This document shows, one piece after another, positions 2,358-60,389 of a DNA stretch of 64,000 bases. The position numbers were made by a program, and so were the translations under genes. The notes under the pieces were generated by a model that was given only the letters and a program-made list of their open reading frames with translations, had not been told where the DNA came from and ran no database searches. Origin of the DNA: Squalus acanthias (Eukaryota); NCBI GenBank assembly GCA_030390025.1, contig CM059431.1, positions 112,098,001 to 112,162,000 of the forward strand, given 5' to 3'. Position 1 is the first letter of the stretch. The number at the start of each line of letters is the position of its first letter.

Positions 2358-4061
2358 AATATGTCCAATATGTGTTTAAAGTATAGCCAATTGATCACAA
2401 TCCAATTTAAATTGATTTTGGTGTCCATGGTGATGCGTGTAGCAAGGCACATGAATTCAAGTAGGTCTTGCACGAGGATGATCAGCCCCAATCTATCTAA
2501 CTTCTGTAAACATCGAGACATTAGAACCTCAAAACAAGATAACTTAAAATGGATTTTTTTTAAATCCAATAGTTTTGTAAGCCTTCCTTGATTTAGTTTT
2601 CTAAATTTTTAATATGTGCTTAATAAATCAAATTATTTACACTTTATTTCACAACTTTATAATTTTTTTTAATGTTGAAATAATGCATTCTCCTTTGGAT
2701 AGAAAGTTGCCTCTATGGCTCCTGCATTCTTCCATAGTTCTCCGTGTAAACTGTACCTAAGTACAGTGGGCAGGAGAGCATGCATGTTCATCAGTAAAAA
2801 TGGGCCGAGTTTGTTTTAAAATCTCAGAGTTCTCTATCAGGTGAGATAGGTTGTTTCTATGATGATTAACAGCATAGCCAAGAATCGATTGGACTAATCG
2901 CACTTCAGCGTCTGCCAGTTCTAAAATTTAAACCGAGCTATAACAGAGTGTCGCGCTATTCTAATTTAATATCACGGTACATTGGTCTTATCTGTACACT
3001 TCATTGCTTAAGCAATGCGCTAGTCATTTTTTTAATAAAACTAGTGGAAAATTAAGAACTCCCCAGATCAGTGTCACAGCTGCTGTAGTAAGATACGCAC
3101 CTAACACAGCTGGCGTGCTAAGCGGTGATGGTCAAAAATAGTTGCATATTGCCGTTGGTTTAGCGCAACAGATGCAAAGCAATGTTTGGCTTATTTGCAG
3201 CTTGATTTGACTTTGGCTGACGGTGTGTTGTGCTGTTAAAGATAAAGCTGCATAGTCACTTATAGTTATGTAATTGTAACATGCATCTTGGACCCTACAG
3301 TAAGCATAAAGGTTGGCAACTGAACACACTACCTTGACCTATACCTGTCCTACAAACTTCTTTTGATTGGGTATGGGATTGATCGTGGAAGAAATGGGAT
3401 TGCTGTCTCGTGTAGTAATAGCTTTTGGTCTGGTTTTTGTTACCCATTTCTGCGTGACTTAAGGTCTTTTTAAGATCTCGCATGCCATGTACTATTTCTA
3501 ATTAGAGGGAGTGGGCAGATGGATTATTCTTGGGCCTATAACTGGTCAGGAACTGGTCACCTAGTGTTGGTTGATCATCCATCTTCAGTTCCTTCCCCCC
3601 TCTATCTCTCTGCTGATACTGAGACCAGGCACCTCTTCCATCTTATTTAGAAGCATTCCAACTCGTTGTGTATATATATACACCAAATAAATGCCTTTTA
3701 AATCTAAAAGTTACAAACTATTCTCTTTCAATTGATTTTTTTTAAAGTATCCAGACACACATTCCAGGATTAACATGTTGTTTTTAAATTAAGACTATTC
3801 CGATGAATCCAAGTCGCATGAATATTCGGATGTTAAGCCACAAAAAACGTTTCCTGGTTAAGTGCGTTCGCAGTCATGCTGAACATGATGGTTAAATTAA
3901 GTTCAATCTTTTATTAGCTGAGCAGCTAATATTTGTGCAGGCCTTTCGTTTCTGAATTCTGTTAAGCTGCCCAGCTGAAACAAAAAAAAACAAACCTTGG
4001 CCCTGAAATCTCGCTGCGGGAAGCACTTCCAGAGATGCTAGTACTTCACGGAGGAGTCACG

Positions 4062-8000: not shown

Positions 8001-11000
8001 TGCATAAGGTCCCAATAGCAGCATGTAATGTTTACTAAGTGGGGCAATCAAAAGATGAGGTCAGTATATTCTCAGTATATCTGTTCCTTTTCTTGGGATA
8101 ACAATGAGTTTCATCTGGTAGTAGTTTAGAATAAATCCATTATTATTATACCACATGTAATAGTGTAATCTAGCCTATAGTAGTGATGCTTAACTAGTGA
8201 TCGGACAGTGGTGTGTTCTGTTTTGATTTTGTCAAAAGCTCCCTAGTTGATCATCTATTCCTGGTGTATCCATCGTATAAGGGTCACGTTATCTTTCCTT
8301 TTGTTCTCAAAGGTGAAATCTTTTGGTAGTTGGACTTGATTTGCATTTTTATTTATGATGGCTGTTTATTCACGCACAGGTGGTAGTGTTATGGTAGTAA
8401 GTCCCCATAAGACTGCTTTAAACACGGAAAGCCACTTTAAACCTTGTGCATTATCTAAAATGTATATTAAAAACTCGCTACCACAGGGAGTGGTTGAAGC
8501 GAATAGTATAGATGCATTTAACGGGAGAAGAGAATAGAGGGTTATGCTGGTAGAGTTAGATGAGGAAAGGCGGGAGGAGGCTCGAGTGGAGCATAAATGC
8601 CAGCATGGACTGGTTGGGCCGAATGGCTTGTTTCTGTGCTGTATATCAACAACAACAACTTGTATTTATATAGCGCCTTTAACGTAGTAAAACGTCCCAA
8701 GATGCTGCACAGGAGTATTTTAAGACAAAAAATTTGACACTGATAAAGGATAAATTAGGGCAGGTGACCAAAAGCTTGGTCAAAGAGGCAGGTTTTAAGG
8801 AGCGTCTTAAAGGAGGAAAGAGAGGTAGCAAGGCAGAGAGGTTTAGGCAGGGAATTTCAGAGTTTAGGGCCTAGGCAACAGAAGGCACGGCCACCAAAGG
8901 TTGAGCGATTATAATCGGGGATGCTTGGGGGCAGAATTAGAGGAGCGCAGATATCTCTTTTGGGGGGGGGGGCGAGGCCATGGTGGGATTTGAAAACCAG
9001 GATGAGAATTTTGAAATCGAGGCGCTGCTTAACCGGGAGCCAATGTAGGTCAGCGAGCACAGGGGAGATGGACGAACGGGACTTGGTGCGAGTTAGGACA
9101 CGGGTAGCCGAGTTTTGGATGATCTCAAGTTTACGTAGGGTAGAATGTGGGAGGCCGGCCAGGAGTGCGTTGGAATAGTCAAGTCTAGAGGTAACAAAGG
9201 CGTAGATGAGGGTTTCAGCAGCGGATGAGCTGAGGCAAGGGCGGAGATGGGCGATCTTATGTAATCCTGTGTATATTAAGTTTGCTGGTATCAAACTTTT
9301 TGGACTAGTCTTCATTTAAATGCAGTTTTCTGTTTGTTTAGCAAATACACAACTCTGATGGAAGATGGCCAAATGAAGTCTGCACGCATATGTGTGCAAT
9401 AAAATGCAAGGAGATGTACTTATCTACCATCTCCTAAACAGTTAACTTTTTTTTGTTTGCTTTTGAATGACGGCTACCCACGGAACAGTTGGGTTCGGAT
9501 TTCATGTATTAACTGCAGTGACCGTGTGGGATTTGGAGGCTAGCAGTAGTCACATATTTTTGATGGATTAGTGGTTATGGGATGTAAAAGGAATGCACAG
9601 TATATATAATCAGCAAGAAAATGCTGGGTAACATTTACGCGATCTTGTAACCTTAATCTACTAATCTTTCCAACACACAAAAATCCTCATTTAGATTTTA
9701 AATTGAGATTTACTGATCCAGATTTTCCTCTATATTGAGGGGTTTGTAACGGTATAGATACGCTGTATGTACGTAAAATCCAGATGATCACTGTAAACTT
9801 CCTTGAGACACTTACAAAGGATTGCTTTTTTTGTATCGACCAGTCTCAGCAAAAATAAAGCCTAGGTGAGGGTAATATATAGTCATAACGGCACAGAAGG
9901 AGGCCATTCGGCCCATCGAGTCCGTGCCGGCTCTCTGTAGAGCAATCCAGTCAGTCCCATTACCCCGCTCTGTCCCCGTAGCCCTGGAAGTTTATTTCCC
10001 TCAAGTGCCTATCCAGTCTCCCCTTGAAAACATTGAGTGTCTCCGCTTCCACCACTTCTGTCGGCAGCGAGTTCCAGGTCCTCACCACTCGCTGCGTAAA
10101 AAAGCTTTTCCTCACATCCCCACTGTATCTCTTGCCCAAAACCTTAAATCTGTGTCCCCTAGTCCTTGTACCATCAACTAGTGGGAACAGCCTTTTCCCG
10201 TCTAGCCTATCCAAACCCGTCATAATCTTGTACACCTCTATCAAATCACCCCTCAACCTCCTTTGCTATAATGAAAACAAATCCAGCTTCTCCAACCTGT
10301 CCTTGTAGCTAAGATCCCCCATCCCTGGAACCATTCTGGTAAATCTCCTCTGCACCCTCTTCACATCCTTCCTGAAGTGTGGTGACCAGAACTGGACGCA
10401 ATACTCCAGTTGTGGCCTAACCAGCGCTTTATAAAGGTTCAGCATAACTTCTCTACTTTTGTACTCAATACCTCTATTTATGAAGCCCAAGATCCCATAT
10501 GCTTTGCTAACCACTCTCTCAATATGTCCCGCCACCTTCAGGGACCTATGCACATTAACTCCCAGGTCCCTCTGTCCCTGCACACTCTTTAAAACTGTGC
10601 CATTAAGTGTATATTGCCTCTCCCTGTTCCTTCTGCCAAAATGCATCACCTCACACTTCTCTGTATTAAATTCCATCTGCCACTTGTCTGCCCATTCTGC
10701 TAGCCTTTCTATGCCCTGTTGCAGTCGATTGGTATCATCCTCACTGTTTGCCACACCCCCAAGTTTGGTGTCATCGGCAAATTTAGAGAAATTCTACTCT
10801 GTATTCCAATATCCAGGTCATTTATATAGAAAGCAGTGGCCCCAGCACTGACCCTTGGGGAACACCACTGTCGACCATCCTCCAGTCTGAAAAACAGCCA
10901 TTTACCACAACTCGCTGTTTTCTGTCCTTAAGCCAATTCCTTATCCAAGCTGCCACTGACCCACCTATTCCATGAGCCTCAATTTTGTTAACCAGCTTTC

Positions 11001-14000
11001 CATGTGGTACTTTGTCGAACGCCTTCTGAAAATCCATGTAGACAACATCCATTGCATTCCCTTCATCAATCCTCCCTGTTACTTCATCAAAATATTCAAT
11101 TAGATTAGTTAAACACGGCCTGCCTTTTACAAATTCATGTTGGCTCTCCTTAATTAGCTTAAACCTCTCCAAGTGCCCGTTAATTTTTTCCTTGATTATT
11201 GTTTCTAAAACTTTACCCACCACTGATGTTAAACTGACCGTGTAGTTACTAGGATTGTCCTTGCACCCTTTCTTGAACAATGGTGTCACATTTGCCACTT
11301 TCCAATCCATAGGCACCTCCCCCACATCTAGGGAAGATTGGAAAATTATGGCAAGCCCTTCCGCTATCTCCTCCCCCAATTCCCTTAGCAAGCCATCTGG
11401 ACCAGGCGACTTATCCACTCTAAGCATACCCAGCCTTTCTAGTACATCCTGTCTATCAATTTTCACCCCTTCCATTGCTCCTACCTTTTCCACTTCTACT
11501 GATATTTTGTCAGCATCCGCCTCCTTAGTAAACACCGATACAAAGTACTCATTGAGTATTCTAGCCTTGCCCTGCGCCTCTAAGCATATATCACCTTCTT
11601 TGTCTCTAATAGGCCCCACCCCGCCTCTTAATACCCGCTTACTGTTTACAGGCCGGAGAAGAATTTTGGGTTCCCTTTTATGTTAACCGCCATTCTACTC
11701 TCATATTCTCTCTTTGCCAATCTTATTTTCATGTTGCCGATTTCTTATTTGTGGACATTCCTGAGGAATCTGGAATATGATAACTTATTGAAAACTTGGT
11801 GGTAAAATAGTGCTTTCTAACTATTTACACTGCTCGGATTCTGGCCAGGGTCTGGAGCTCCAATACAGTCACTTCAGAGGGCTAAAGTCTTGTATATCTT
11901 TTTTCCTCTCGAGAATCAATTGGGACAGTTTTAGTTCACAGGAGCACTTGCTACTACTTTGGAGATTCTGCCGGTTGTACAAGTCGGGTTTTGAGAAGAA
12001 AATGATGTGCATGTATGTAGAATTAATTAATAACATTATGACATTAAGCAACTTAAATTTGTCAGATAACTGATGTAGATAAAATCGGGACTTTAGAAAA
12101 ATGTTAGGGAAGTGACAGTTAAGTGAAATCTGGAATGTTTTATCAGCACAAAGTACTTTTTGGACATCACTCATTAAAGCATAAGGCTTAACAGATGTAA
12201 GGGAAATGTGCGGTCACATTATTTTTAGGATTGGACTTTATTTCCTGTGAAAGACACCAGATATTCAATTCCTTATGTCTTGAATTCAAAATGCACAGAA
12301 AGTTGGGGGGAAATTGTTGTTCAAGTAATGTTGCTGAATATAAAAAGCAGGAAATGCGGTTCATTTTGTATTCACGTTCCTTTTGTGGGGATTGAAATGC
12401 AACACTAATTAACTTGAAGCTGACTAGTTTTGCCATTTGTAAGAACTTTTCTCAGTTGTACCACTGTGTACAAATTACAACCTAACTAAATACTTTCACA
12501 GACCACACCTACTTATCATCTCGGTTTCACATTTATTCTAATGAGTGTTTTTGCTCTCTTCCCTCTTTTTTTTCCTCCCCTCCCTCACAGGGAGTTCAGA
12601 CAGCAGGGACCGTATAGTGGTGACCAAACCGACTACAGAAAGCTGAACTCCTCAGATGAAGAAGTGTTTGCTGAAGAAAGTAAGCCCCCACAACGTTTGT
12701 ACGAAAGGAGTTATACTGTGGCAAGTGAAACCCCTTTCACTTCCCAGAGACATGCGACGGTTTCCTCGGTGCCTCCACGTCAAGCCTCTCTGAACCAGAC
12801 AGCATCAGAATTGAAAACTACAGTCAACAATATGTCAGAAAAACAAAGCCCTGTTCCATTCTATACCCGCCATTCAGTGGACTCTAAAACGGAGCAAAGT
12901 CGGGTTTCAAGTTCTCTGCCTCGGAATTACCAAAGACCTGACGTGTCCAGGATTGCACCTGTGGTTGTGCCAAGACCCTACGGTTCGCAATCTAATAAAG
13001 TCTCCTCCCTCACTAGATCTTATCCGGTAAGTGGTTCTGGATAAATCCAATATGTTTATTTAAGCAAACTATTTCAGGGTTGTTTCTGTTTTCATTAAGT
13101 GTGTTGGTTTGGGGCCGTTTCCCTTCAGATGTGTTCAAGGTCTCGGGTTGCGAGCTGCTTCATTGTGCATCAATAATAAACCAGTTCTCTTTGGCTCTGC
13201 AACTTAGCAGCCGTATAGATTTCTTTTTATTTCTTGCTCTCTGCATTCTCGTTTTAGTTTGTTGTACTGGTGCAAAATGTGAGCAAACTGTACTCTTTGA
13301 ATTCATTTCATTTCTGGACGCGACTATGCAGACATTTAATTTGAGTATTTTCCGTTTTTTGGAAGCAGGAATAGTGAAGGGGAATTTAGAACATTTTTTG
13401 CACCACTTGATGCAGAAGCTTAAAACTACCAAGCCAGCGCATCCAATTTTAATTTCTGTGGTTGTCATTATGCAAACGCTTTTTCAATTGTAACAGCATA
13501 TGTAAACTAATACCAATATGTGGCATTTCAGTGTGTAACACAAGAGCAGAAAATGCTGGTAAACATTCAGTTCAGGAAGCATTTGTGAAGTGAACAGACA
13601 AGTTTGTTGCTGATCCTACTTCAAAAGCTCCAGCATTTACTGTTTTGTTTCAGATGTCCAGCATCTGTAGTTTTTGTTTGCTTTTTGTTTGCATTTCAAT
13701 TTTTGGCTTCCTTTTGGGAGGAAAGAGAGACACTCGCAGTGCATAAGCTTTGAATTTCATCTTTTAAAATTAGTGCCCAAAGATTCAAGACAAATTAGTA
13801 TCATTGTTAAGCACGTTACCCTCTCCTGCCTATTTCTTCCCAAACCCCTGCCCACCCCACCCCAAGTAAACTCTGCTTGATGGTACAAGATCCAAGTAAG
13901 CCAGATTACTTCACAATCTAATAAGGGTTTTGAGCAGTAGCAAACTTACTGTGCTGTCTGCTGCTGCCAGTCTTCTCTGGCACTGTACAGAGTGATGGTT

Positions 14001-20000: not shown

Positions 20001-23000
20001 CATTTCCTTTTTAATCAGAGTTATTACATTGACTATCCTCCAGCCCCCAGTACAATGTTAATGTCTAAGGAGGATTGGAAAAACTGTGGCCAGAACCTTT
20101 ATTATTTCCTTCAACACTCAGCAGGCATGCCATTAGGGCCCAGAACCAATTCCTTTCCACTGCAATCTCTAAACAATTGTTGCACATCTTCCTCCAGTAA
20201 TCCTACATTCTCACTTCCCTCACCATTTGAAAAAACTGGCACAAAATATTGAATATTCTTGGCCATACCTTCCTCCTTCACAAGTAAGACTTTCCTACTT
20301 CATCCCTGAATGATCTTCCCTTTTTTAACTGCTCTTTTACTTAAAGCCCTTGCTATTTCTTTTTATATTTTCATGATGTTTATTTGCTTTCCTAATTGCA
20401 TTGGGTAATTTACCACAAGTTTAAAATTGGATATTTTTATGCCACTAATTACTGATTTGGGATGAAGTAGCTTATCAAAATAGATGGCCTATGCATGTGA
20501 CCCTAGATTGTTTGCTAAAATCTGTGTGCTGGCTTTCTTAACAATGTTTGTACCAGTTGTGGTTCACTTTGCAGCTGGAGCCAAATTAAATTACACACAT
20601 CCACTGCACTAGATATAATTAGCAGATTGACAATGCTTCAGTGCTAGACATTGGATCCCAGGGATATGATTGGGCCCTGCACACCTAACCCTTTATAACA
20701 ACAGAAAACGCTGGAAAAACTCAGCAGGCCAGGCAGAGAGAAATAGAGTTAACATTTCAGGTCGAAGACCTTTCGTCAGAACTGGAAAAAAGCAGGAAAT
20801 GAAATAGATTTTAAAGCAAGTTTAGGGCTGGGAAAAGGGGGAGGGGATGAAAGAACAAAAAGGAAGGTCAGTGATAGGATAGAAAGCAGGAGAGATTAAG
20901 AGATATTGAGAGATATTCAAGGCAAGAGGAGGTGGAAATGGGACAGGTTGAGGAACAAAGGATGGCTCTAGATGAAGTGTGAATTGCGCTGGCAGAATGA
21001 AGGACAGCTGCCAGCTTCTGGGAGGGAAGAAAAAAAGGCCAAACAAAAGTGTGGATAAAAAAATATATAAATAAATTTTTACCGGGGTTATGATCTGAAA
21101 TTGTTGAACTCTGTATTGAGTCCAGAGGGCTGTAGAGTGCCTAATTGAAAGATGAGGTGCTGTTCCTCGAGCTTACGCTGAGCTTCTGTGGAACAATGCA
21201 AGAGGCCGATGACGGTGAGGTCTGAGTGGGAATGGAGCGGTGAATTAAAGTGACAGGCCACCGGGCGCTCGGGGTCCCCCTTACGAACTGAACGGAGGTG
21301 TTCCACAAAGCCTAACCCTTTGTTAGGTTTATAAATAAATGGAAACTTTTGTGATGCCCTAAAGTAACCTTCGCTCCTCCTTTCTCCTACCTCCTGTCCA
21401 ATGTTTCCTTTTTTTTTGGGTGCGTGGTCCCTTTAAATTTCCACGCATGCACGGCTTTTCCATTTAAAAGCCGGTGAGCCGGCTGCGCGGGACCTCCAGA
21501 CCGCTGTGCGGCCGCGCAGCTTAACGGAAACATTGCTCCTGTCCCATCCTGGAGTTTTACATGGACACTTCAGGATCTGGAGACCACACACCTCACCATA
21601 TCTACTTTACAGTTTGGAAATGGTGTAATAGATAGTATGAATGCTGATTGCAATTTTATAAAGCTCCAGAACCATTTCCATTCAATTTTCTGACCCGCTG
21701 TGAAATGGCTTGATTCTTTAGCAGAAAATCTTGGTGGTTATAATATCTAATGCATTTGAATTCAAAATTGTTGTTCTCTTCTGCGAGTCGATCCACATCT
21801 TACCCCTTCCCTTCATTGGCCACCTCCTCCAGCACTACTTGCTGACTTTTGACTCTGGCCTCCTTTGCATTCCCTTTTCTCTTCGCTCCAACGTCAGTCT
21901 TGAAACCTTCAGCCACACTCTCTAGAAAGCTCGCCTTAAAACCTTCTGCTATGGTACCTCTCTTCACTCCTTCAAAATGTAACTTTTTGACTCTGCCTTC
22001 AGTCACCTCCCTTAACTCTTCTCCCATTGCCAGCTGGTGTGTGTTTTATTCCCCTCTCTACCACTTTGGGGCATTTTGTGTTAAAGTTGCGATATAAATG
22101 CAAGTTGTTGTGTTAAACTTTTCAAACTGCGAGCCAAAATAGAGCGCACAGAATTTTGGAATGTGGATAATCTTCTCCACTCCAATTTATCCCGCTCTAT
22201 TGAACTATGGATCTCCGCTTTCTCATGCAAGGAAATGCCATGGAGAAGATGGAAGAAGAAAAGTAGCAACTGTGGGGAAAGTTATTGATGCATTTGAGTG
22301 TACCAGTCAGTGACCAACCAAGAGTGGCATGGGTGGAGGCCTCAAAGCAGGTCGACTACTGTCTCTGTTGTAGTTGATGCTTGGGATGGAAAAAAAAAGA
22401 AAATCATGAGCAGGGCAAATAACAAGATGAGAAGGAAAACCAGACTGAAACAAAGACATTATGGGTGTGATGAATACTAAAGACAAACCCTCAGCAAAAA
22501 CTTTAAATATTTGTGTGAAACTTGAAGTTCGCAACACAATTCGTAATGTGGAGGTTGCTACATTTGTAACAATCTACAGACCGAAAATGAAGTCCTTCAC
22601 GTTATCTTTTGTCATAATTTGCAATGAGCACGACAGATTGAGGTCACAGCCTGACATTACCTGATCTGGTGAGATAATACGGAGGGTAATGTTTTTTAAG
22701 AGAGCCAAGTAGAAGAAAAGCCTCTTTTCAAGTTTTATGGAAGAAGTAGAGAGTGAACAACTTTTAATTTTATAAAAACTGCATCAGTCAGTATAGCTCC
22801 TATTTCTCTCTTTTTTTGTGGCCAGGTGGACCAGCAGAATATTGCCAGTTGGAAGTGGATGATGAAATACTTTCTATCAATGGCAATAATGTAGCCAGTA
22901 TGGACTATCGGGCTTGGATAGGAGCCATGGAGAATGCAAACAAAAGTGGAAACTTGAACATGGAAGTCAGAAGATATGGAAATAGCAGTAAGTCCATAAT

Positions 23001-29000: not shown

Positions 29001-32000
29001 TCTCTTTTTACAGCTACACAGGCGGTTGGGTTGAAGTGATGTACAATTTTGCTGTAAGCGGAGGGTGCGGGAAATGGTTCAAAATGAAACGAAGGCTAAA
29101 ATCAAATACTGTTAAGTGCATGAAAGAAGGATATTTTTTATTCAACCAAAGTATGGTTTCAAAAAGAAAACTGCAATTAAGTGCTTGATGCACATTTTTA
29201 GGGATTCAGACAAATTATGTGTCAACTTCAATCTGAATTCAAAGTATTGAAATGCAATCGACATTAAAGGACCCTAACAACTTCTCATGGCGCATTCGCA
29301 TATAATATAGATGTAATATCTCTAAGTTTGCAGACGACACAAAGCTGGGTGGGCATGTGTGCTGTGAGGAGGATGCAGAGAAACTCCAGTATGATTTGGA
29401 CAGGTTGGGTGATTGGGCAGATGCAGTATAATGTGGATAAATGCGAGGTTAACCACTTTGGTGGCAAAAACAGGAAGACAGATTATTATCTGAACGGCAA
29501 TAGATTGGGAAAAGGGGAAGTGCAACGAGATCTGGGAGTCCTTGTGCACCAGTCACTGAAGGTAAGCATGCAGGTGCAGCAGGCGGTTAAGAAGGCAAAT
29601 GGTATGTTGGCCTTCATAGCGAGTGGATTCGAGTACAGGAGCAAGGATGTCTTGCTGCAGTTGTACAGGGCCTTGGTGAGACCACACCTTGAGTATTGTG
29701 TGCAGTTTTGGTCGCCTTATCTGAGGAAGGATGTTCTTGCCATGGAGGGAGTGCAGCGAAGATTTACCAGACTGATACCTGGGATGGCAGGAATGACGTA
29801 TGAAGAGAGATTGGGTCGATTAGGCTTATATTCGCTAGAGTTTAGAAGAATGAGAGGGGATCTCATTGAAACTTATAAAATTCTAACAGGACTAGACAGA
29901 CTAGATGCAGGAAGGATGTTCCTGATGGCGGGGGAGTCCAGAACCAGAGGTCACAATCTAAGGATAAGGGGTAAGCCATTTAGGACTGAGATGAGGAGGA
30001 ATTTCTTCACCCAGAGAGTGGTGAACCTGTGGAATTCTCTACCACACAAGGCAGTTGAGGCCAATTCATTAAATATATTCAAGAAGGAGATAGATATATT
30101 TCTTAAGGCTAAAGGGATCAAGGGATATGGGGAGAAAGCAGGGACAGGGTACTGAATTTGGATGATCAGTCATGATCTCATTAAATGGCGGAGCAGGCTC
30201 GAGGGGCCGAATGGCCTACTCCTGCTCCTATCTTCTATGCTTCTATAAGTTCTATTTTATAAGAGGAAGCCAAATAGAAATTAATCAAAGCTCGGTGCTA
30301 GTTTTGTTGCCTTTTAAAAGCAGCCCAGCCCATAACTGAAAAACCTGCACCGAAGCGGTAGATTTCAAGTCATGTTAGGGAGGATGAATCATTATAATTA
30401 TTGATGGGTAATATGTTCGCACTTTGAAATTGTAATAGTATTGGCTGAAAGTTACACGAGTTTTGTTAACCCTATCACTGTCAGTAGCGCAGAGCTCTGG
30501 TTGTGAATATTTGGTATGTGTTAACAGAGCAGGGAATAATAGATTCCAAGAACTGAGATTGTAAGGCTCTAATTTATCCATTGGTGTAACTTCCTAAACC
30601 ACAATAGTAAAGCTTGAATGTTCTAGGAAAGCAGGGAACTCTTATTTTAAATAGAAAGTGCTGGAAACACTCGGCAGGTCAGGCAGCAGAGTCAGAACTG
30701 GAAAAGTTTAGGGAGGAGAGATTTTTAAGCAGGGGCAGGGAGGAGGGGAGGAAAGAACAAAAGCGAAGGTCTGTGAGAGGCTGGAAGGCCGGAGAGATTG
30801 ACTGACAAAAGGGATGATGGTGCAAGGCAAAAGGAGATGGTAATGGAACAAGTTAAGAAACAAAAGATGGCTCTAGATGAGGTGTGACCGATGATGGCAG
30901 CAACATTAACAGCTACCGTGTGAGGAAACGAGAGAGAAAAAAATTAAAGAAATACGAAGGCCAATTTATAGTCTGAAATTGTTGAACTTGTTTTGGACTT
31001 GACATTGAGTTCAACAATTTCAGACTATAATTGTTAATGTTGCTGCCATCATCATTCACACCTCATCTAGAGCCAACTTTTGTTTCTTAACTTGTCCCAT
31101 TACCCGTTCTGCCTGGACCCCTCCCTCTGGCCTCTTACCCTCTCTAGATCTTTTCATTGTTAACTGCCGGCGTGACATCGGCCGTCTCAATTTCTCTGCT
31201 CCCCTCTCTCACTCCAGCCTACCTCCCTCTGAACTTGCAGCACACTCTTCCCTCAGATCCAACCCCGACATTGTCATTAAACCTGCTGACAAGGGTGGTG
31301 CTGTTGTTGTTTGGCGTACCGACCTCTACCTAGCAGAAGCTGAACGGCAACTCTCCGACACCTCCTCCTACCTCCACCTGGACCATGACCCCACTACCGA
31401 ACATCAAGCCACCATTTTCAAGACCGTCATTGACCTCATCTCCTCTGGAGATCTCCCCCCCCCCCCCCCCCCCCCCCACCCCCCCCCACGGCCGCCAACC
31501 TCATAGTCCCCAACCCCGCACAGCCCGCTTCTACCTCCTTCCCAAGATCCACAAACAGGACTGCCCCGGTAGACCCATCGTTTCAGCCTGTTCTTGCCCC
31601 ACGGAACTTATCTCTTCCTACCTCGACTCTATATTTTCTCCCCTTGTCCAGTCTCTTCCTACCTACATCCGCGACTCTTCCGATGCCCTCCGCCACTTTA
31701 ACAGTTTCCAGTTTCCTGGCCCCAACCGCCTCCTTTTCACTGGACGTACAATCCCTCTACACCTCCATTCCCCACCAGGATGGCCTGAGAGCGCTCCGCT
31801 TCTTCCTTGAACAGAGGCCCAACCAGTCCCCATCCACCACCACCCTCCTCCGCCTGGCTGAACTTGTTCTCACATTGAACAACTTCTCCTTTGACTCCAC
31901 CCATTTCCTCCAAATCAAAGGTGTTGCTATGGGTACCCGCATGGGTCCTAGCTATGCCTGCCTTTTCGTGGGATATGTGGAACACTCTTTGTTCCAGTCC

Positions 32001-35000
32001 TACTTGGGTCCTCTCCCTCACCTCTTTTTCCGGTACATTGATGACTGTATCGGTGCAGTCTCCTGCTCTCGCCCTGAACTAGAACATTTCATTCACTATG
32101 CTTCCAATTGCCACCCTTCCCTCACCTTCACATGGTCCATCTCCGACTCTTCCCTTCCCTTCCTCGACTTCTCCGTCTCCATCTCTGGGGATAGGTTATT
32201 GACTAACATTCACTACAAGCCCACTGACTCCCACAGCTACCTGGACTACACTTCCTCCCACCCCGCCTCCTGTAAGGACTCTATTCCATTCTCGCAGTTT
32301 CTCCGCCTCCGCCGCATCTGCTCTGACGATGCCACCTTCCATACCAGTGCTTCCGACATGTCTTCCTTTTTCCTCAACCGAGGATTCCCCTCTACTGTGG
32401 TTGACACGGCCCTCGACCGTGTCCGTTCTATCTCCCGCACTTCTGCCCTCACCCCTGCCCCTCCCTCCCAGAACCACGATAGAGTTCCCCTTGTCCTCAC
32501 CTTTCACCCCACCAGCCTTCACATTCAACGGATCATCCTCCGCCATTTCCGCCACCTCCAGCGTGATCCCACCACCAAACGCATCTTCCCCTCACCTCCC
32601 CTTTCAGCATTCCGCAGGGACCGCTCCCTCCGCGATACCCTAGTCCACTCCTCTACCACCCCCAGCACCCCTTCCCCTTCGCCCGGCACATTCCCGTGCA
32701 AGCGCAGGAGATGCAACACATGCCCTTATACCTCCCCCCTTCCCACTGTCCAGGGCCCCAAACACCCCTTCCAGGTGAAACAGCGATTTACTTGTACTTC
32801 CTGCAATTTAGTATACTGTATTCGCTGTTCACGATGTGGTCTCCTCTACATTGGGGAGACCAAACGCAGATTGGGTGACCGCTTTGCGGAACACCTCCGT
32901 TCAGTTCGTAAGGGGGACCCCGAGCTCCCGGTCGCCTGTCACTTTAATTCTCCGCTCCACTCCCACTCTGACCTCACCATCCTCGGCCTATTACACTGTT
33001 CCACGGAAGCGCAGCGTAAGCTCGAGGAACAGCACCTCATCTTTCGTTTAGGCACCCTACAGCCTTCTGGACTCCACATCGAGTTCAACAATTTTAGATC
33101 ATAACCTCAGCCCCTATCACATTTATATTTTATTTTTTCATCCAACCTTTTGTTTGGCCCCCCCCCCAGTTTTTTTCCCTCCCAGAAGCTGGCAGCTGTC
33201 CTTCATTCTGCCAGTGCATTTCACACTTCATTTAGCCTCAACCAGTCACATTAACACCACCTCTTGCCTTGATCATCTCTTAATGTCTCTCAATGTCTCT
33301 TAATCTCTCCTTTTGTTCTTTCATCCCCTCCCTCTTTTCCCAGCTTTATACTTGCTTTAAATCTATTTCATTTCCTGTTTTTTTCCAGTTCTGACGAAAG
33401 GTCTTCGACCTGAAACGTTAACTCTGTTTCTCTCTCCACGGATGCTGCCTGGCCTGCTGAGTTTTTCCAGCGTTTTCTGTTGTTATTTCCCGTTACCTCT
33501 CCTTTTGCCTTGCACTATCCTCCCTTTTGTCAGTCAGTCTCTCCTGCTTTCCATCCGAACACAGACCTTCCCTTTGTTCTTTCCTCCCCTCCTCCCTGCC
33601 CCTGCTTAAAAATCTCTCTTCCCTAACCTTTTCCAGTTCTGACGAAGGGCTCGACTCGAAACGTTGATTCTGTTTCTCCTCTCCTCGATGCTGCCTGACC
33701 TGCTGAGTGTTTCCAGCACTTTCTGTTGTTATTTCAGATTTCCAGCATCCGCAGTATTTTGTTATTGTCTTATTTTAAATAGTTGCTTATATAATTTTGT
33801 ATTTGATGTAGCTGCTGGCCCTTGAGGAAGGAAAATAATAAAAATGAATTGTATGTAATTTACCAGAATGATGTATACTCCACATATAAACAGGGTTATC
33901 GAAGTGTGTTTTTACTCCATATATTTTTGTGTTGACTGTCCATTCCTAATGTGTACATGTAATTCATTGTTTTGTGATCGAAATAAACTTGATAGCTAAT
34001 GCATTTTGTATTTTTGCTTTAGCATCTGAACCCCTTAGTCTGAAAAACTTTAAAAGGCGATCCCAGTTTTTTGAACAAGGTAAAACAAAAATTAATATGC
34101 GTGTATGTTTTGTGGGGCTGGCTAACATCTAGGCTTCCCGTTATGCTGACTGACTGTTATGGTATTGAAACATATAGTCATGGCTTTCCATATATTCATC
34201 TGCCTGGTAAAGCTTATGATTTTGTATATGCCTCTCTTCTTTCTGTAGGCTCAGCAGAGTTTGTTTTCAATTCATCGGTCTACCTTTGTGGTAATCGTTA
34301 TTCATTGTGTTTTTTTGACAGATGTGTTCATCTTTTTAAAAATGCTGTTTCAGACCTCGGAAATGTTTCCAATTTCTAACCATCGTTAGATATTTGGCAA
34401 ACAAGCGTTCTGTTTTTGTAATTTCACCGAGTGTGTAAATGCCTGATGCAAAATATAAAACAGGATGAAACAGCAGACCATTTGAAGGCCATACCAACAT
34501 TTTAATATGTCATTTTAGATTGTGAAATCTGAGTGTTGGAGTACCAATCCAATTAGTTAGACAGTTCAAAATTTACAATATTGCATTTTGTTAAATATAT
34601 TTTTCTCGAACAAAATCCAATCAGCAGACTAGGTTTGCAACAACAGTGTGTGCTTTAGTAATATTCAAACGGCAACCTGCAAATGTTGGTACGGTCTCAT
34701 TTTTTAACATTACCTCTTGCTTGCTATCTTCACGCAGCTTTGTGAATGAAATGCATCACATCCTTTGTACTCTTTTCCTCTTTTGTGCAATAGTATTGGA
34801 TTTTGCACATTTTTTGTGCCATAAGCATTGTAAACTCAAAGAAAGTGTGTTTGACAAAAATGCATTGTTTTATATACATGCAGAAAACGGATTGAAATAA
34901 TACAAAGTAGTACAATAATCAGTGGTGCCATATCATCTCAAATTACATGACATTACCCATTGTCTCTTTAGGGTGGCTTTAATAGACATCCAGCTGTTTG

Positions 35001-37306: not shown

Positions 37307-40300
37307 TTCCTAGTCTCTGTTGGAATGACAGGTACAGTAGTTGAATCTATTGTATGTCATTGTACCATCAGTTGTCTGGGAATCACTGAAGTAGTCTGCA
37401 TTGTTTGGGATTGGGACACGCGTAGTCTGTTCAATCCCGCATAAGTAGAACAGCATCCCGGGGTGCTTGACTTGTAACTTTAAACAAGAAATGCAAATTG
37501 GCAATAGAATCACATTGAGACCGGCAGCCAGCGTGGTCAAATTAATATCGTCAGCTTATTTTGAATGGCCGATCAATTATGCACCACTTAAATAAATGTT
37601 CTTAATCCACCAGAATGGGAGTTATTTACGCCTTGATTATGATCAGTGAAAATTTCAATTTGTTTTGCTATCAGAGCATTTGTTTCACTATTGATTTAAA
37701 AAAAAAAAATTAAAAGAAGTATCCCGTTGGCCAATGAACATGCACAGCATTTCATATTGGAGCATTCTGAGCCTCTGTTGTCCAAACCAATTTACCATCC
37801 TTTTGCTTCAGGAAGGACATAATGCTACCCTTTTCTAACTGTAGCCCTAATGCTGGCATGTTGTCATGGTGCTGTTGCTGGTTATAAAAAGGAGCATGCA
37901 TGAAGTAGTGGTGATGGCTTATCCTTTTTATTGGTTGTAATTGTGCAGTGGTAGCTCTTGTATAAACAGCCTTTGCCAAATCTAGACTCAGAGCAATAAA
38001 AACAGAAAATGCTGGAAATACTCAGCAGGTCAGGCAGCATCTGTAGAGAGAGAAACAGAGTTCATGTTTCAGGTCGATGACCCTAGACTCCAAGCAATTC
38101 ACTGCAAGTGTTCATCTGAAATGGTAGAAACCATCGCAAGGCGTGCATTGTCAACACTTAAGAATGTGACATGCATCATTCATCGACTTTGAATCACTTA
38201 TTCAATGTTGGTTCTTGTGGTACAGTTCAGCAAAGTTTTATCATCAAATAATGTACTTCACTTTTAGTGTGAATCCTGTAGAATCTCAGCTTTAATGTTT
38301 TAAATTTGATAATGTACAGATTTTACTTCATGTTTTGAATAGCTAAATTCTGACAACGCCAAACATTTTATTACTAATATGACTGAGTGAAATCAGCAAT
38401 TTAAAGATTTCTTGGGAGTTTTAGTCTGGATTCAAGTTTTGGCATTGGTAGTTATTCCTCGTAGTACTAGTGGGCCAATGTGAAAACACACGCCCTTCCT
38501 TACTTCCACGCACAAAAGCTTTCATTTACCTAATGGTTTTGATCGTTTGGGACTATTAGGAAAAATATCAGCGCGAGCAGGAGAAACTGCAAGAAGAGTG
38601 GAAAAAGGCCCAGGAAGAGGCTGAACAAGAAGGTTCCAAGTACTATGAAGAGGTAACGAGAGATGCATTCAACAGGTTGTGGGGGGGCGGGTATCCATGG
38701 AGATGAGGGAAAGGGCAACACACCAATCTCTGAAACAGCAATACATTTTAGATTGTTTTAAGTTAGAAGGGGACTAAAAGGTATTAAAGTATTGACTGAG
38801 ATCAAACATTTTGGAGTTTTGTTGTTTCGTGTCAAATTTAGCCATAATAAACATCCCTTTAACAGCCAAACTGGAAAATATTGATTTCTGCCTTTCTGAT
38901 GTTGCAATAATTCATCATATAAATGTTCATCATATATTACTCAAAATTGGTAATCTGGTGTTTTTGATTAGAGTATATTTTTACGCTTCTGGGTCCGAAC
39001 ACTTTAAAAAAATGTCTAGTGGCTTTAACAGGCTTTCCTTACAAAAGCTGAATTATTTTTTTTTTAAACTGAGAGCTGCCAGTTACTAATAGCAACCATT
39101 AGGCAAAACCTTTTTTCCTGCTGGTATTATGATTGATGGCTTTGACTTGCCAATGAAACAGAATGGGGATGGGGAGCATTTTCTTTAATTATCTATCTTT
39201 CGGCTGATTTTTAAGACCGCAGTGACTTTTTAAATGTCCTATTCTTTCGACTTCCATGTACAAATAGAATGTTGCTATCATTCCTTGGGGCAAAACAGTA
39301 CTGCATACAAAACACCCGTGGGCACTGCCCTTTGTAAGAAATTCATGCCTTGTGCTAGCACGAGATAAGTATTCTTCTCCAAATCATTGCAATTGCTGTT
39401 TCATTCTTTGTTTTGAGTTCAAAAGATCTTCAACTTTCCAAGTACATGTAGAAAGGCATTTTTCTTCTAGGCTGTTGCCTACTTATTAGCAGCAAAATTC
39501 TCATCGCATTTCACAGCACAGTATTCAGCAGTGGCCAACCCTAATTGGATCAATAGCAAAATACTGCGGATGCTGGAAAACTGAAATAACAACAGAAAGC
39601 GCTGGGGAAAAACTCAGCAGGCCAGGCAACATCCGTGGAGAGAAACAGAGTTAACGTTTCTGACGAAGGGTCTTCGACCTGAAACGTTAACTCTGTTTCT
39701 CTCTCCACGGATGTTGCCTGGCCTGCTGAGTTTTTCCAGCGCTTTCTGTTGTTATCCTAGTTGGATCAACTCTGGTGCATCTTTTTCAGACACTATTGGG
39801 TAACAAACAGCTGCTAATTTTAAATTTGGACCCAGTGGTTATGGATCCTTCCCCATAACTAAATCGCATAAAACGTTGTCTTCTCGGTCTTCCATCATTA
39901 CCTGGTTTTGATGTGCAAGTCATGCTCAAAACTCCGCACAAGGTTCACTGGGCCACAATCCTGGCTACAGAAATGTTGATTCTCTCAGAAATGAGACACT
40001 TGGCATCCAGTTCTATCCAGAAGCAATCATTCAATTCTCGGCCAGCAAGTGAACGAAGGGTGGTCAGGGAGTGTTAGTAATAAAAGAAAGAAAAGAAAGA
40101 CTTGCATTTATATCGCGCCTTTCATGACCACCGGATGTCCCAAAGCGTTTTACAGCCAATGAAGTCACTTTTAAAGTGTAGTCACTGTTGTAATGTGGGA
40201 AACGCGGCAGCCAATTTGCCCACAGCAAGCTCCCACACACAGCAATGTGATAATGATCAGATAATCTGTTGTTTTATTGATGTTATTGAGGGATAAATAT

Positions 40301-43300: not shown

Positions 43301-46300
43301 GATGTCTGCATCTCCACTCCCGATTGCTGTGATCTGTTAAATGCATTGCACTACGAAAATTGGAAACCATTTAGTGATTCGGTTATTAATTTTTAAGAGA
43401 AAATAGAAAAGTCCCCCAAATTAAAGCGATTAAATTTGTTTAAAAATGGCAGTAGCTACTAGAAAGATTGCATTCACCTGCAGTGTCTTCTTATCTATCT
43501 TTATACATTTAAATCTAGGTCACGTATGCATGAACATAATTGTTTTCTGATTGTGGTGCAGTACGTTGATGCTTCAGTGAACTGGACTAGCTGGTCCAAC
43601 AGTTTTAGATGATCTCGGCCATATTTCTGTTGTGTTTATGGGAGGGGGAAGAGGTGCTAGGTAAGTGGACGGTAGGTGCTTCACCACCGGGAAAGACGAT
43701 GACATCATAGAAACATAGAAGATAGGAGCAGGAGTAGGCCATTCGGCCCCTCGAGCCTGCTCCGCCATTCGATGAGATCATGGCTGATCATCCAAACTCA
43801 GTACCCTGTACCTGCCTTCTCCCCATATCCCTTGATACCTTTAGCTTTAAGAAATATATCTAACTCATTCTTGAATATATTTAATGACTTGGCCTCAACT
43901 ACCTTCTGTGGTAGAGAATTCCACAGGTTCACCACTCTCTGGGTGAAGAAATTCTTCCTCATTTCTGTCCTAAATGGCTTACCCGTTATCCTTAGATTAT
44001 GACCCCTGGTTCTGGACTCTCCGACCATCAGGAACATTCTTCCTGCATCTAGTTTGTCCAGACCTGTCAGAATTTTATATGTTTCGATGAGATCCCCTCT
44101 CATTCTTCTATACTCCAGCGAGTATAAGCCCAATCGACCCAATCTCTCCTCATATGTCATCGGAATATGGTGACAGGGGCAGAAAAATGTCAATATTCCA
44201 TTTGTTTTGTATGCCCACGAAATTGTTCAATTGCTCGTCGGCAATTGGGGTCATTCGGTTTTGTTGTGATCTGCTAGTCTATCCGGAATCTGTTTATAAG
44301 AAAATGACTGGTGTAGCTTCACATACTTTATATAATAACCAGCCTGCAATGCCATTATGATTATAGGGCCAAGTCAAAGTCAACCTCTGAACTTGATGAG
44401 ATGGTGTCTGCACCAAGACATGGTAAGTTTCTCCTCCTCGACTGTTTCAACTGGGGAGTAAAAACAGATTTGGATTTCCTTTCGCTAGCCACTTTAACCA
44501 GCCAGTGATTCAATCTTCAATGAATTGAGAATATCTTGGCTCCATTTATTCAGTAAGCATTGGTTGCATGTTCAGAATTTTGACTCTGAAACAGTAACAA
44601 TCAAGAGTGAAATATGGCTTTGCAGGTATTCAAAGTAGGTAGTTACAACAATCACAAGGGAACAATTATGCCTATGAATATCCCTTGACAACCTCTTAAA
44701 AGAAGTTGAATGAAATGCAACTTAAATTTAAAATATTCCAATTAATAAACACGAGCCTGTCGCAAATGTAATTACTGAAGAACCCAGTCAGCGCTCATTT
44801 GTTTGGGTACCAGACTCTGCTTCAGTTACAGATATGCTTGGGTAGTGCTAGCGTTATGCAGCCAAGAGCAAATAACTGTTGTTACAGTATATGTGGGGTG
44901 GATTATAGATGGGATTAGGCATTTAAAAAAAAATGTTCAAGCATTTCTTGGCCTTTGCCTTTAACTTTTTATTTGAACACACATTGAAAACATTATCCTT
45001 GCATGAGAGCTAATGGCGTGCTGTGTGCCTATTCAAACGTGCATTTAGGTGTAAATGTGAGACCAGTGGGTGGTGTGGCCCAGTGGCTGCTCGAAGAAGA
45101 CAAACTTCGCAGGAGTTCTGGGAAGACACGGGATGCAGCACGAGCTGAATTGGAAACTGAGAGGCTGAGAATCCTTAATCAGATGAAATATGCTGACCCA
45201 GAGAGAGGTGGGGAATATGCCCTCTGATCAGCAGCCAACCTTTACCATCATTTTTCTATCATTCCAATGATCAAACTAATCGGCTAATTTTCAGCTGCAC
45301 TTTAAACCGCTGCTTCCATTGTCAAGCTTTTTTTTTTAAGATGCACTGAGTTCTGCTTCAAAATGGAATTGTTTCTCAAATGAATCATCTTGTTGGCACG
45401 TTAATCACAGGCGTGTTCCCTTGATGTGCAAGGCACCTGCTGAATGCGCTGATGCAGTGCTGCGTTGATTCTTGGATGACCAATATTTTAACGCTAAACG
45501 TGCTATTTGTTCCTGGTAGTTGCTTGATCGCACTAACCATCGCAATCGTAATTTTCTTCCCCCAGTTCTGTTATAATCTACTAATGGAACAGGCCTTTCC
45601 AAATCAATTTTGAGTATGAGTGCTTATTTTGGGCTACGCTGATATTTGAAAATTAAATAATTTGTCCTGGAGAGTTGGTCGTTCTGCATGTTATGAATGC
45701 TCCACCGATTTTTTTAATTTGACGATGCACACGATTTATGCTGATAACGTAATTATGATGAAAGAATGTTCTGCCAATTCATACGCACAACAATGCAAAT
45801 GTATTTCAGCACTGCGATGATGAGCTTGGATTTGTTCATAACACTCCACGCAAATGGGGTTTGGTATTTGCAATTGCAGATGCCCCATCTTTAAATACAA
45901 ACAATCAGTTGGGATAATCCGAACTTTTCTAATACGGCCAATAGACCAATTGAAGCGCAGTGGCAAAACATTTGGGCTCTTAACGATTATCTGCCTTGGT
46001 CGATAGGTGATGTGAAGAGCAAAGTCGCAGACAGCGCGTGGATTAAGAGCGAGTCACAATCGAAAACCTCACAACAGAAAGAGCCACCACTCTCGCATGC
46101 TGAGCAGGAGCGACAGAAAATCCTGCAAGAGATGCGTAGAAAGACCCAGCTCCTGAACGACAATAGCTGGATCAGACAGCGCAGTGCCAGTGTTGCTGCT
46201 AAGAATGCACTCGGTAATTATGGATCAATGAGAAGGTATGAGCCACATCAAAGTAGCAGTAGTATTTCTTTTATTAATTCACGGGATATGGGCATCGCTG

Positions 46301-59295: not shown

Positions 59296-59921
59296 TAGTT
59301 TTAATATTCAAAATCACCTGATCTATCTACATATTAGAAGTATGTAAACAGGCAAGATTGGCAAGGATTTGTATACTGACAAATGGGGAAACTTGGCATC
59401 AATTTTTCTTAAAATATGTGATATTGTGACAAATTGAGAATATTCTGTCTAAACTGGAAGCTGGTAAGCATTTGTACACTCTTTCTGAAGCAGCTTATAT
59501 TTTTCCTTGAATAGTCTCAGCAGTGGTTAGAAAATGTCACAGCACTGCAGTTTAATTGAATAGTATACAGTTAACAAACTGACAAGTGCCTGATTCCTAT
59601 CAACCTGAGAGACTCCTGTGAAGTTTTACAAGCTCCAGTTGAATTTTAAACACTGCTGTGAAGTTATTCTCGGCTAATTCTGGCTAAGATTCAGCTACTG
59701 AGCATATGTGTATTTAGAAATCTAACTATGATATTAATATGGAGCAGATTATTATTAAAATAATGTGTGCATTAAAGCATTTTTTAGAATGTCACAAGCA
59801 CATAGAAAGCTGTAGTTCTCTTAAAATGGTGCCTATAGGTATGGTTTGTTATGTACTTCAATCAAATGATGCCACCTTGTGGTGTGATTGCAACAATTAC
59901 TACAAACACTGTTAATATTTT

Positions 59922-60138
59922 ACAATAGCAAAATACTGCGGATGCTGGAAATCTGAAATAACAACACAGAATGCTGGAAACACTCAACAGGCCAGGCAGC
60001 ATCCGTGGAGAGAGAAACAGAGTTAACGTTTCAGGTCTGTGACCCTTCGTCAGACGAAGGGTCACAGACCTGAAACGTTAACTCTGTTTCTCTCTCCACA
60101 GATGCTGCCTGGCCTGCTGAGTGTTTCCAGCATTTTCT
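59922..60138. mobile_element. Fold-back PLE-derived hairpin element
   Basis: near-perfect palindrome centred at 60052; perfect 14-bp TSD ACTGTTAATATTTT (59908-21, 60139-52); hammerhead core on minus strand 60018-60053. Confidence 0.88.
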
Positions 60139-60389
60139 ACTGTTAATATTTTTGTTTAGTTAACTTTGTGCAATTATCCCATTGCACAGAGTATATTTTC
60201 TACTATTAAAGCCACGTTTCTGAAATTCATTGGTGTTCTATTTGATTAAAAAAACTGAAGATACTTCAAGGCTCAAGTGAGGTATGTAGCGTCGGTTTGC
60301 TCGGAATTTTGATTTCCTGTAGAGACGTGTGCTTTATTTTTCAGTGAATTTGTTTGAGACTCTTGTGATAGATTTTGGAACTTCATTGC

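Follow-up and report, generated by a model that had tools for sequence, protein, structure and literature searches.

A Penelope-like element (PLE) in a shark genome carries a minimal type I hammerhead motif in its pseudo-LTR (pLTR). Probably the motif cuts the element's own RNA, slowly and with the help of dimer formation or protein, and the copies scattered through the genome are likely inert by-products. The motif is of a known type: its extra base and its Penelope home were described in 2014 by Cervera & De la Pena, who defined the minimal motif in PLE pLTRs (PMC4209133). The present element contributes a cartilaginous-fish example and the largest copy number in the literature covered. Counted for this reading is the architecture, which equals the published consensus (an extra H at 9/10.1, a palindromic 15.2-16.2 and no helix III). 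Counted against it is the spread of a U4>C subfamily, with 2,097 exact copies genome-wide (control 0), although U4C lowers hammerhead activity in vitro (PMC3088659).

The window is the whole 64-kb stretch of DNA that was analysed. The first-pass annotation had listed cores of the form CTGACGA...GAAA at 33391(+), 33639(+), 39660(+), 20779(-) and 60053(-), and a pattern scan recovered all five. The loose core pattern has 10 matches in the 64 kb compared with 6.2 expected, which is not above chance. A full descriptor, consisting of the core, a stem II of at least 4 bp and a stem I of at least 3 bp, matched the window twice (33391 and 20779), whereas 200 shuffles averaged 0.005 matches and none had more than 1. 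Only the copy at 33391 is complete, and therefore the claim of five ribozymes is unsupported.

The complete minimal type I motif lies at 33387..33423 (+), as defined by its sequence, the descriptor scan and the consensus in Fig. S3 of PMC4209133. Stem I is formed by 33387-33390 and 33420-33423 (AGUU/AACU). C3 to A9 (CUGACGA) occupy 33391-33397 and are followed by an extra A at 33398. Stem II has 5 bp (33399-33403/33407-33411), GAAA is at 33412-33415, the palindromic ACGU is at 33415-33418, and H17 is the U at 33419. Cleavage had been expected after GUU or UUA. GUU agrees with U17 at 33419 and a predicted cut at 33419|33420, and UUA can be dropped.

The other four copies depart from the uniform design first described. 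The core at 33639 (33635..33669, +) had been given a 5-bp stem II and an aact end; it pairs only 3 bp in stem II, has a wobble-rich stem I, ends in GATT and is a degenerate member of an older subfamily. The supposedly fixed GAAA-CG-TT reads GAAA-TG-TT at 20779, which means a C>T change at the CpG position 15.2 of the ACGT palindrome; stem I of this copy is intact despite the decayed palindrome. At 39660 and 60053 stem I is down to 2 and 1 bp respectively, because an inverted arm replaces its 5' strand. The extra base after CUGANGA is present in all five copies, but rather than any purine it is always an A, placed after A9. The aggtc/gggtc variation of stem II does not compensate anything: position 10.1 changes between A and G while U11.1 opposite is constant, so there is no covariation among the five. 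A search of the window against Rfam, the suggested check, returned 16 matches at E≤5, all hairpin-driven and below gathering scores, and no hammerhead family was among them. Canonical type I traits, namely an Rfam match, helix III and a longer stem I with tertiary contacts, were not found for this motif, which has a 4-bp stem I and lacks helix III.

Genome-wide (3.71 Gb), a tight pattern gave 26,719 exact matches, and 38,367 motifs were complete with stem I; the control was 0 in both searches. The proposals of minimal type I hammerheads in Penelope pLTRs and of a very large family are thus both supported. The figure of 38,367 exceeds the published counts that we found for such motifs, with the caveat that counting methods differ: 4,000 in coelacanth and 9,000 in Xenopus (PMC4209133, another counting method), and a highest retrozyme count of 14,255, in axolotl (bioRxiv 10.64898/2026.07.22.740005). 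A loose pattern gave 86,719 matches versus 10,850 in the control; decayed copies are among them, and the number is best read as an approximate ceiling. A G-C closing pair marks a minor subfamily of 1,007 copies genome-wide (control 0). A pattern without U11.1 had 7,474 matches versus 4,548 in the control. Other hammerhead families in the genome were considered and rejected, the listed stem-forming matches of this U11.1-less pattern being variants of the present family. In a sample of 268 copies chosen by their 3' end, 67 contain the complete motif. A different repeat (e.g. G000:C1 447693-447719, L092) has both boxes with no stem II between them, probably as a chance match.

The hammerhead copies of the window sit in introns of LMO7. 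An exon at 45895..46200 (+) was assigned by protein search (best matches 77% to Pristiophorus and 73% to Heterodontus LMO7); Pfam and PDB sequence searches with the host exons gave no match. Exon-like + strand frames occur at 12490, 16150, 42839, 45895 (the LMO7 exon), 52685 and 60418 (window 12490-60885), and RT-like pieces of other retroelements lie in the introns, e.g. at 10266-11682 and 29268-30155. As LMO7 is on the + strand, the cores at 33391, 33639 and 39660 are sense and those at 20779 and 60053 antisense.

The motif at 33391 belongs to a young 5'-truncated PLE at 31105..33489 (+), recognised by Pfam and by BLAST against a full-length copy (L122), with which it shares 94% identity over 2390 nt. 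It consists of an ORF remnant with a stop at 33104 and a frameshift near a poly-C run, followed by the 3' UTR/pLTR, and its 3' end is initiation site A (+99). The motif is about 285 nt past the stop of a 556-aa frame that matches two Pfam models, RVT_1 at E=2e-4 and GIY-YIG at E=5e-4, neither reaching the curated cut-off. This element splits an older inverted pLTR pair at 30644..33782, delimited by BLAST pieces and flanks, with approximate inner boundaries: the inverted arm is ~30657-30990, and the direct arm is ~30991-31104 plus 33490-33769 with the tail. A 13-14-nt target-site duplication lies at the bounds of the pair. Nesting of the young element in the pLTR of its older relative created the two same-strand cores, 33639 being 248 nt downstream of 33391.

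The core at 20779 (its C3) is part of a 5'-truncated copy at 20695..21311 (-), with the ORF end, the pLTR and an 11-nt target-site duplication. Two fold-back mini-insertions hold the cores without stem I. The first, at 39548..39760, contains 39660(+), has a 9-nt target-site duplication and folds into one long hairpin (-141 kcal/mol). The second, at 59918..60150, contains 60053(-), has a 13-nt target-site duplication and a mirror arm with U4>A at 60051(+), and also forms a long hairpin (-166 kcal/mol). Both are near-perfect, with ~100 bp per arm, and double-stranded RNA of ~100 bp would be expected from them in the LMO7 introns, as a possible editing or small-RNA substrate. Further core-less or core-truncated copies are a mini-insertion at 37986..38082 (-), which starts inside stem II (+8), lacks the first core box and has an 8-nt target-site duplication, and a copy at about 30650-30846.

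It is highly improbable that the intronic copies are active ribozymes acting on the LMO7 pre-mRNA, for example with the sense pair 33391/33639 as a dimer. Three of the five copies are sense to LMO7, and the complete 33391 with a second core downstream would suit such a role; against this, stem II of the partner at 33639 is broken, nested insertion produced the pair and the copies decay neutrally (below). The genome-wide strand counts, taken irrespective of gene orientation, are also equal (19,031 vs 19,336 of the 38,367 motifs).

Using the 5' part of the ORF, we searched the genome, scored 150 of 10,736 candidates and took 20 long-frame loci. Their frames reach 1004 aa, and in 7 of the 20 a strict regular expression found the motif at each of the two ORF ends, 3.2 kb apart. 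A 955-aa ORF has RVT_1 (E=3e-5) and then a C-terminal GIY-YIG (E=6e-4), both under the Pfam cut-offs. The RT-EN linker in the translated frames is C-TRRR-C-NT-C (CX4CXXC). By this linker motif, a definition shared with Nematis and Naiad (PMC8557442), the element would be of the Neptune type. Among 120 homologues listed for the protein, the best named one is from Chiloscyllium (71%), and no named reference element is included. As the best named homologues of both the host exon and the element ORF come from cartilaginous fish, a cartilaginous-fish host is supported.

Two subfamilies stand apart. In the youngest (L121-L126, 4062-4094 oriented) the core is CUGAUGA, with an AUG that shares the reading frame of the ORF; the canonical cut triplet GUC is found in some of these copies, and cutting would delete the AUG. 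In the U4>C subfamily, stem II has 4 bp and is capped by a UUCG loop (L129:5907-5942 and 2714-2749 (-)), and L129 contains a full-length open frame of 1081 aa. With this subfamily, nature provides a way to ask if spread depends on cleavage.

Pairing was analysed in 14 hand-picked subfamily haplotypes (124 cells), with slid-partner and 500-shuffle controls. In these haplotypes 98.4% of the cells pair, compared with 1-52% with slid partners. The closing pair is A-U in 6, G.U in 4 and G-C in 3 haplotypes, and one pair shows a two-sided change. For the covariation measures, 37-470 of the 500 shuffles were as high. Among subfamilies the stems stay paired, but no formal measure rises above the shuffle control. 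Recurrent subfamily alleles are mostly at N7, the loop, H17 or wobble positions, U4>C being the clear exception. Since the region downstream is equally conserved, and is also coding, conservation alone is no proof of selection for a ribozyme, and the subfamily pattern gives modest support for selection on the motif.

Once inserted, copies decay neutrally, core and flanks at an equal rate. CpG changes were found in 8/67 (core), 5/69 (palindrome) and 5/68 (loop) cases, and in 6/68, 7/69 and 4/31 cases downstream. Non-CpG divergence is 1.5% in the core, 2.2% in the stems and 2.0% downstream.

The best predicted fold of the monomer is an inactive rod with the core paired to the palindrome (-9.1 vs -5.9 kcal/mol for the hammerhead arrangement), and the double-hammerhead dimer, at -9.7 kcal/mol, is far less stable than misfolded dimers at -22.9 kcal/mol. 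At 33392-33420 of the window, the palindrome and the cut site offer a pairing partner for the first core box (UGACG/CGUUA, UGAUG/CGUCA), a possible off state. Cleavage of the monomer was not found and that of the dimer was low according to PMC4209133; dimer cleavage was also observed by Lunse et al., as cited in PMC6765202. The modelled rod fits this low monomer activity and the published protein dependence (PMC4209133, PMC11167929).

With so many copies, the footprint of insertion can be measured. We mapped the 5' ends of copies chosen by a 3' anchor only; 269 were obtained and one unresolved copy was dropped, leaving 268. The loci came from the genome and the window by exact anchors, mostly on contig C1, and loci found by hammerhead or ORF patterns were excluded. 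Positions are numbered with C3 as +1. The rate of 5' ends per nucleotide is 3.6% at -6..-1 (37 of 173 copies at risk) and 1.5% at both +1..+15 and -15..-7. Farther upstream it is 0.16-0.29%, with 3/118 copies ending at -30..-16. It is 0.31% at +32..+45, and at the predicted cut (+29..+31) it is 0.54% (4/245). The ends are ragged, and about half of the copies (120/238) have them within -15..+25. The pile-up is present in both samples (126 and 142 copies).

The 3' ends fall at two sites ~35 nt apart, near +97 and +131 (the PLE 'tail'), and the pile-up is seen for both classes (medians +3 and +1, p=0.39). A limit on cDNA length was rejected as its cause, as no 35-nt shift exists between the two classes. 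Cut linear RNA as the direct template was rejected as well, on the 4/245 ends at +29..+31; re-ligated RNA as template is still compatible with them. Among 141 ends at -30..+45, 81 join an inverted arm, 56 host DNA and 4 other element pieces; both arms of an inverted pair were counted, so those 81 are not independent. Host-flanked ends number 28 at -15..-1, compared with 3 at -30..-16 and 2 at +29/+30. By our own count, a target-site duplication of at least 10 nt adjoins 22 of the 56. An ORF-bearing set, biased to long open frames, comprises 82 distinct copies from 89 loci. Nineteen of these reach +25 and 17 of the 19 pass -15, so that 2/19 stop compared with 120/238 above (Fisher p=6e-4).

These data show that the 5' edge of stem I acts as a positional barrier. 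The pile-up there, together with the passage of 17/19 copies on a second pass, suggests that the RNA starts at this edge. The genome holds tens of thousands of copies, which are likely inert, and many stubs begin just before the motif, not at the predicted cut.

In the explanation that we favour, the element's RNA would be cleaved after GUU or GUC, slowly, as a dimer or with the element's protein. On linear uncut RNA, reverse transcription would run off a 5' end located where stem I begins. The sequence there is the initiator-like CCAGTTC. Reverse transcription would begin internally, ~100-135 nt downstream of the motif, by analogy with the anole PLE (PMC11167929). Such run-off would yield stubs of 100-140 nt and fold-backs with a hammerhead in each, which would explain the high copy number. 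Templates that lack such a 5' end, through read-through, strand transfer or circles, would be the source of longer copies. A simple start-site model would have full-length copies end at -4, yet of the ORF-bearing copies that reach the region 17/19 pass it, which counts against that model.

An unlikely alternative is that the motif hardly cuts in this lineage and persists chiefly for a promoter, protein-binding or coding function, with first-pass reverse transcription stopped by a bound protein or fold. A resemblance to initiator and DPE sequences counts for it. The U4C subfamily proliferated, the youngest subfamily has an in-frame ATG inside the core, no 5'-end peak is seen at the cut, and few copies are stopped at the barrier on a second pass; all of these are points for this alternative. 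In the anole element, hammerhead mutants leave insertion in vitro unaffected and no RNA-seq ends were found at the cut (PMC11167929), which also speaks for it. Yet cleavage by the anole motif was observed, with rescue by C3G/G8C (PMC11167929). The whole core and both stems are kept across animal phyla (PMC4209133), and recurrent subfamily changes are mostly at free positions or preserve pairs, which counts against this alternative.

A little less probable still is that the stubs form a non-autonomous family of their own (a SINE or retrozyme) derived from short masters, rather than being by-products of the autonomous element. Their defined 5' edge and target-site duplications would suit such a family, and PLE-derived retrozymes have been reported in one chondrichthyan (bioRxiv 10.64898/2026.07.22.740005). 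Stubs and long copies, however, share their subfamily alleles and both 3' ends; apart from 4 pairs, no two loci have stub host flanks in common; and the 5' ends are ragged (-15 to +25).

As a more tentative extension, itself doubtful, there may be two template populations: linear uncut RNA from the first base of stem I, giving strong-stop stubs, and a circle made by the hammerhead, giving long or tandem copies. The circle would arise by hammerhead cleavage and ligation at both pLTRs and would lead to long partial tandems of more than unit length. If true, the genome itself would then testify to the role in circular RNA that has been proposed for PLE hammerheads. That hypothesis is reviewed in PMC6765202, and the role of these hammerheads is called an open question in PMC8557442. 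It would also place a ribozyme at the 5' end of an mRNA, where cutting would take away the cap and also, for the youngest subfamily, the AUG. Two predictions follow from the 5'-end profile: RNA should start at A(-4), and a 3.2-kb species should resist RNase R.

The AG before the core might have served as a 3' splice site, like that of D. virilis, but this found no support: upstream of the stubs lie inverted arms or host DNA that differs between loci, and no common exon is seen. Further evidence against it is that the strand is pyrimidine-rich and has several similar AGs. A U-rich tract ending in AG lies just before stem I in the window (33377-33388) and in many motifs of Fig. S3 of PMC4209133, reminiscent of the fly intron end. 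The 24 public runs listed were all contigs. Alignment of 4 runs and then 2 gave no usable signal of a start, an end or a cut, and GT..AG was found in 0/15 of the joints listed, from 78; contigs cannot show starts or cuts. For the fly element, Schostak et al. give a start at 371 and an intron at 416-491 (PMC2377424), and the hammerhead is at 496 (PMC4209133); the fly motif is therefore also near the mRNA 5' end.

In the non-subscription literature covered, no paper on shark PLE hammerheads or on 5'-end clustering was found, and cartilaginous fish are absent from the 56 motifs listed in PMC4209133. Compared with the minimal hammerhead of PMC4209133, the present motif has the same type I topology, CUGANGA followed by H, stem II and a GAAA-CG-U-H palindrome replacing helix III, as well as a 3-5-bp stem I, a U-rich 5' flank and mostly dispersed single copies from truncated elements. 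Many of the published motifs have C-G-U-U instead of helix III. The nucleotide between 9 and 10.1 is a conserved feature there (consensus CUGANGAH), found in 54/56 aligned motifs by our own count, so the first-pass annotation's 'non-canonical core insertion' is not a novelty. In our sample this nucleotide is A in 147/148 copies; of 151 copies, 138 keep the C and 140 the G at palindrome positions 15.2-16.2, the remainder being mostly CpG decay. The difference lies in the closing pair of stem II: in place of G10.1-C11.1 (consensus >80%, not universal), most copies here have A-U or G.U, with U11.1 in 146/150 copies. Several published motifs also close stem II with A-U or G.U, and the same exceptions appear in Fig. 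S3 of PMC4209133 for coelacanth, Xenopus, cichlids and D. willistoni. Since published members depart from G10.1-C11.1 too, U11.1 is no bar to membership.

The non-LTR retrozymes described by Li et al. in 2026 (bioRxiv 10.64898/2026.07.22.740005), which are PLE-derived and occur in one chondrichthyan, also have a type I hammerhead from PLE pLTRs. Retrozymes are tandem repeats with a hammerhead per unit, whereas the window copies are single, nested or inverted, and no tandem array with a complete hammerhead per unit was found in the window.

Like the Neptune clade (as defined by Craig et al. 2021, PMC8557442), the element has an RT followed by a C-terminal GIY-YIG, a Zn-finger-like linker, partial tandems, inverted 5' copies and a tail at one end; here, the clade placement is by the linker motif. 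In the Poseidon element PAc of Anolis carolinensis, Frangieh et al. in 2024 found internal priming at two sites, protein-assisted cleavage, and insertion in vitro that does not need cleavage (PMC11167929). The present element differs from PAc in its CX4CXXC Neptune-type linker; protein-assisted cleavage was shown for PAc. A genomic 5'-end pile-up at the hammerhead 5' edge, as seen here, is not reported in the accessible part of that paper. The two elements share a hammerhead at the pLTR-ORF junction over the start codon (here in the CTGATGA subfamily) and two 3' ends 30-40 nt apart, and in both, cut RNA as the insertion template is unsupported.
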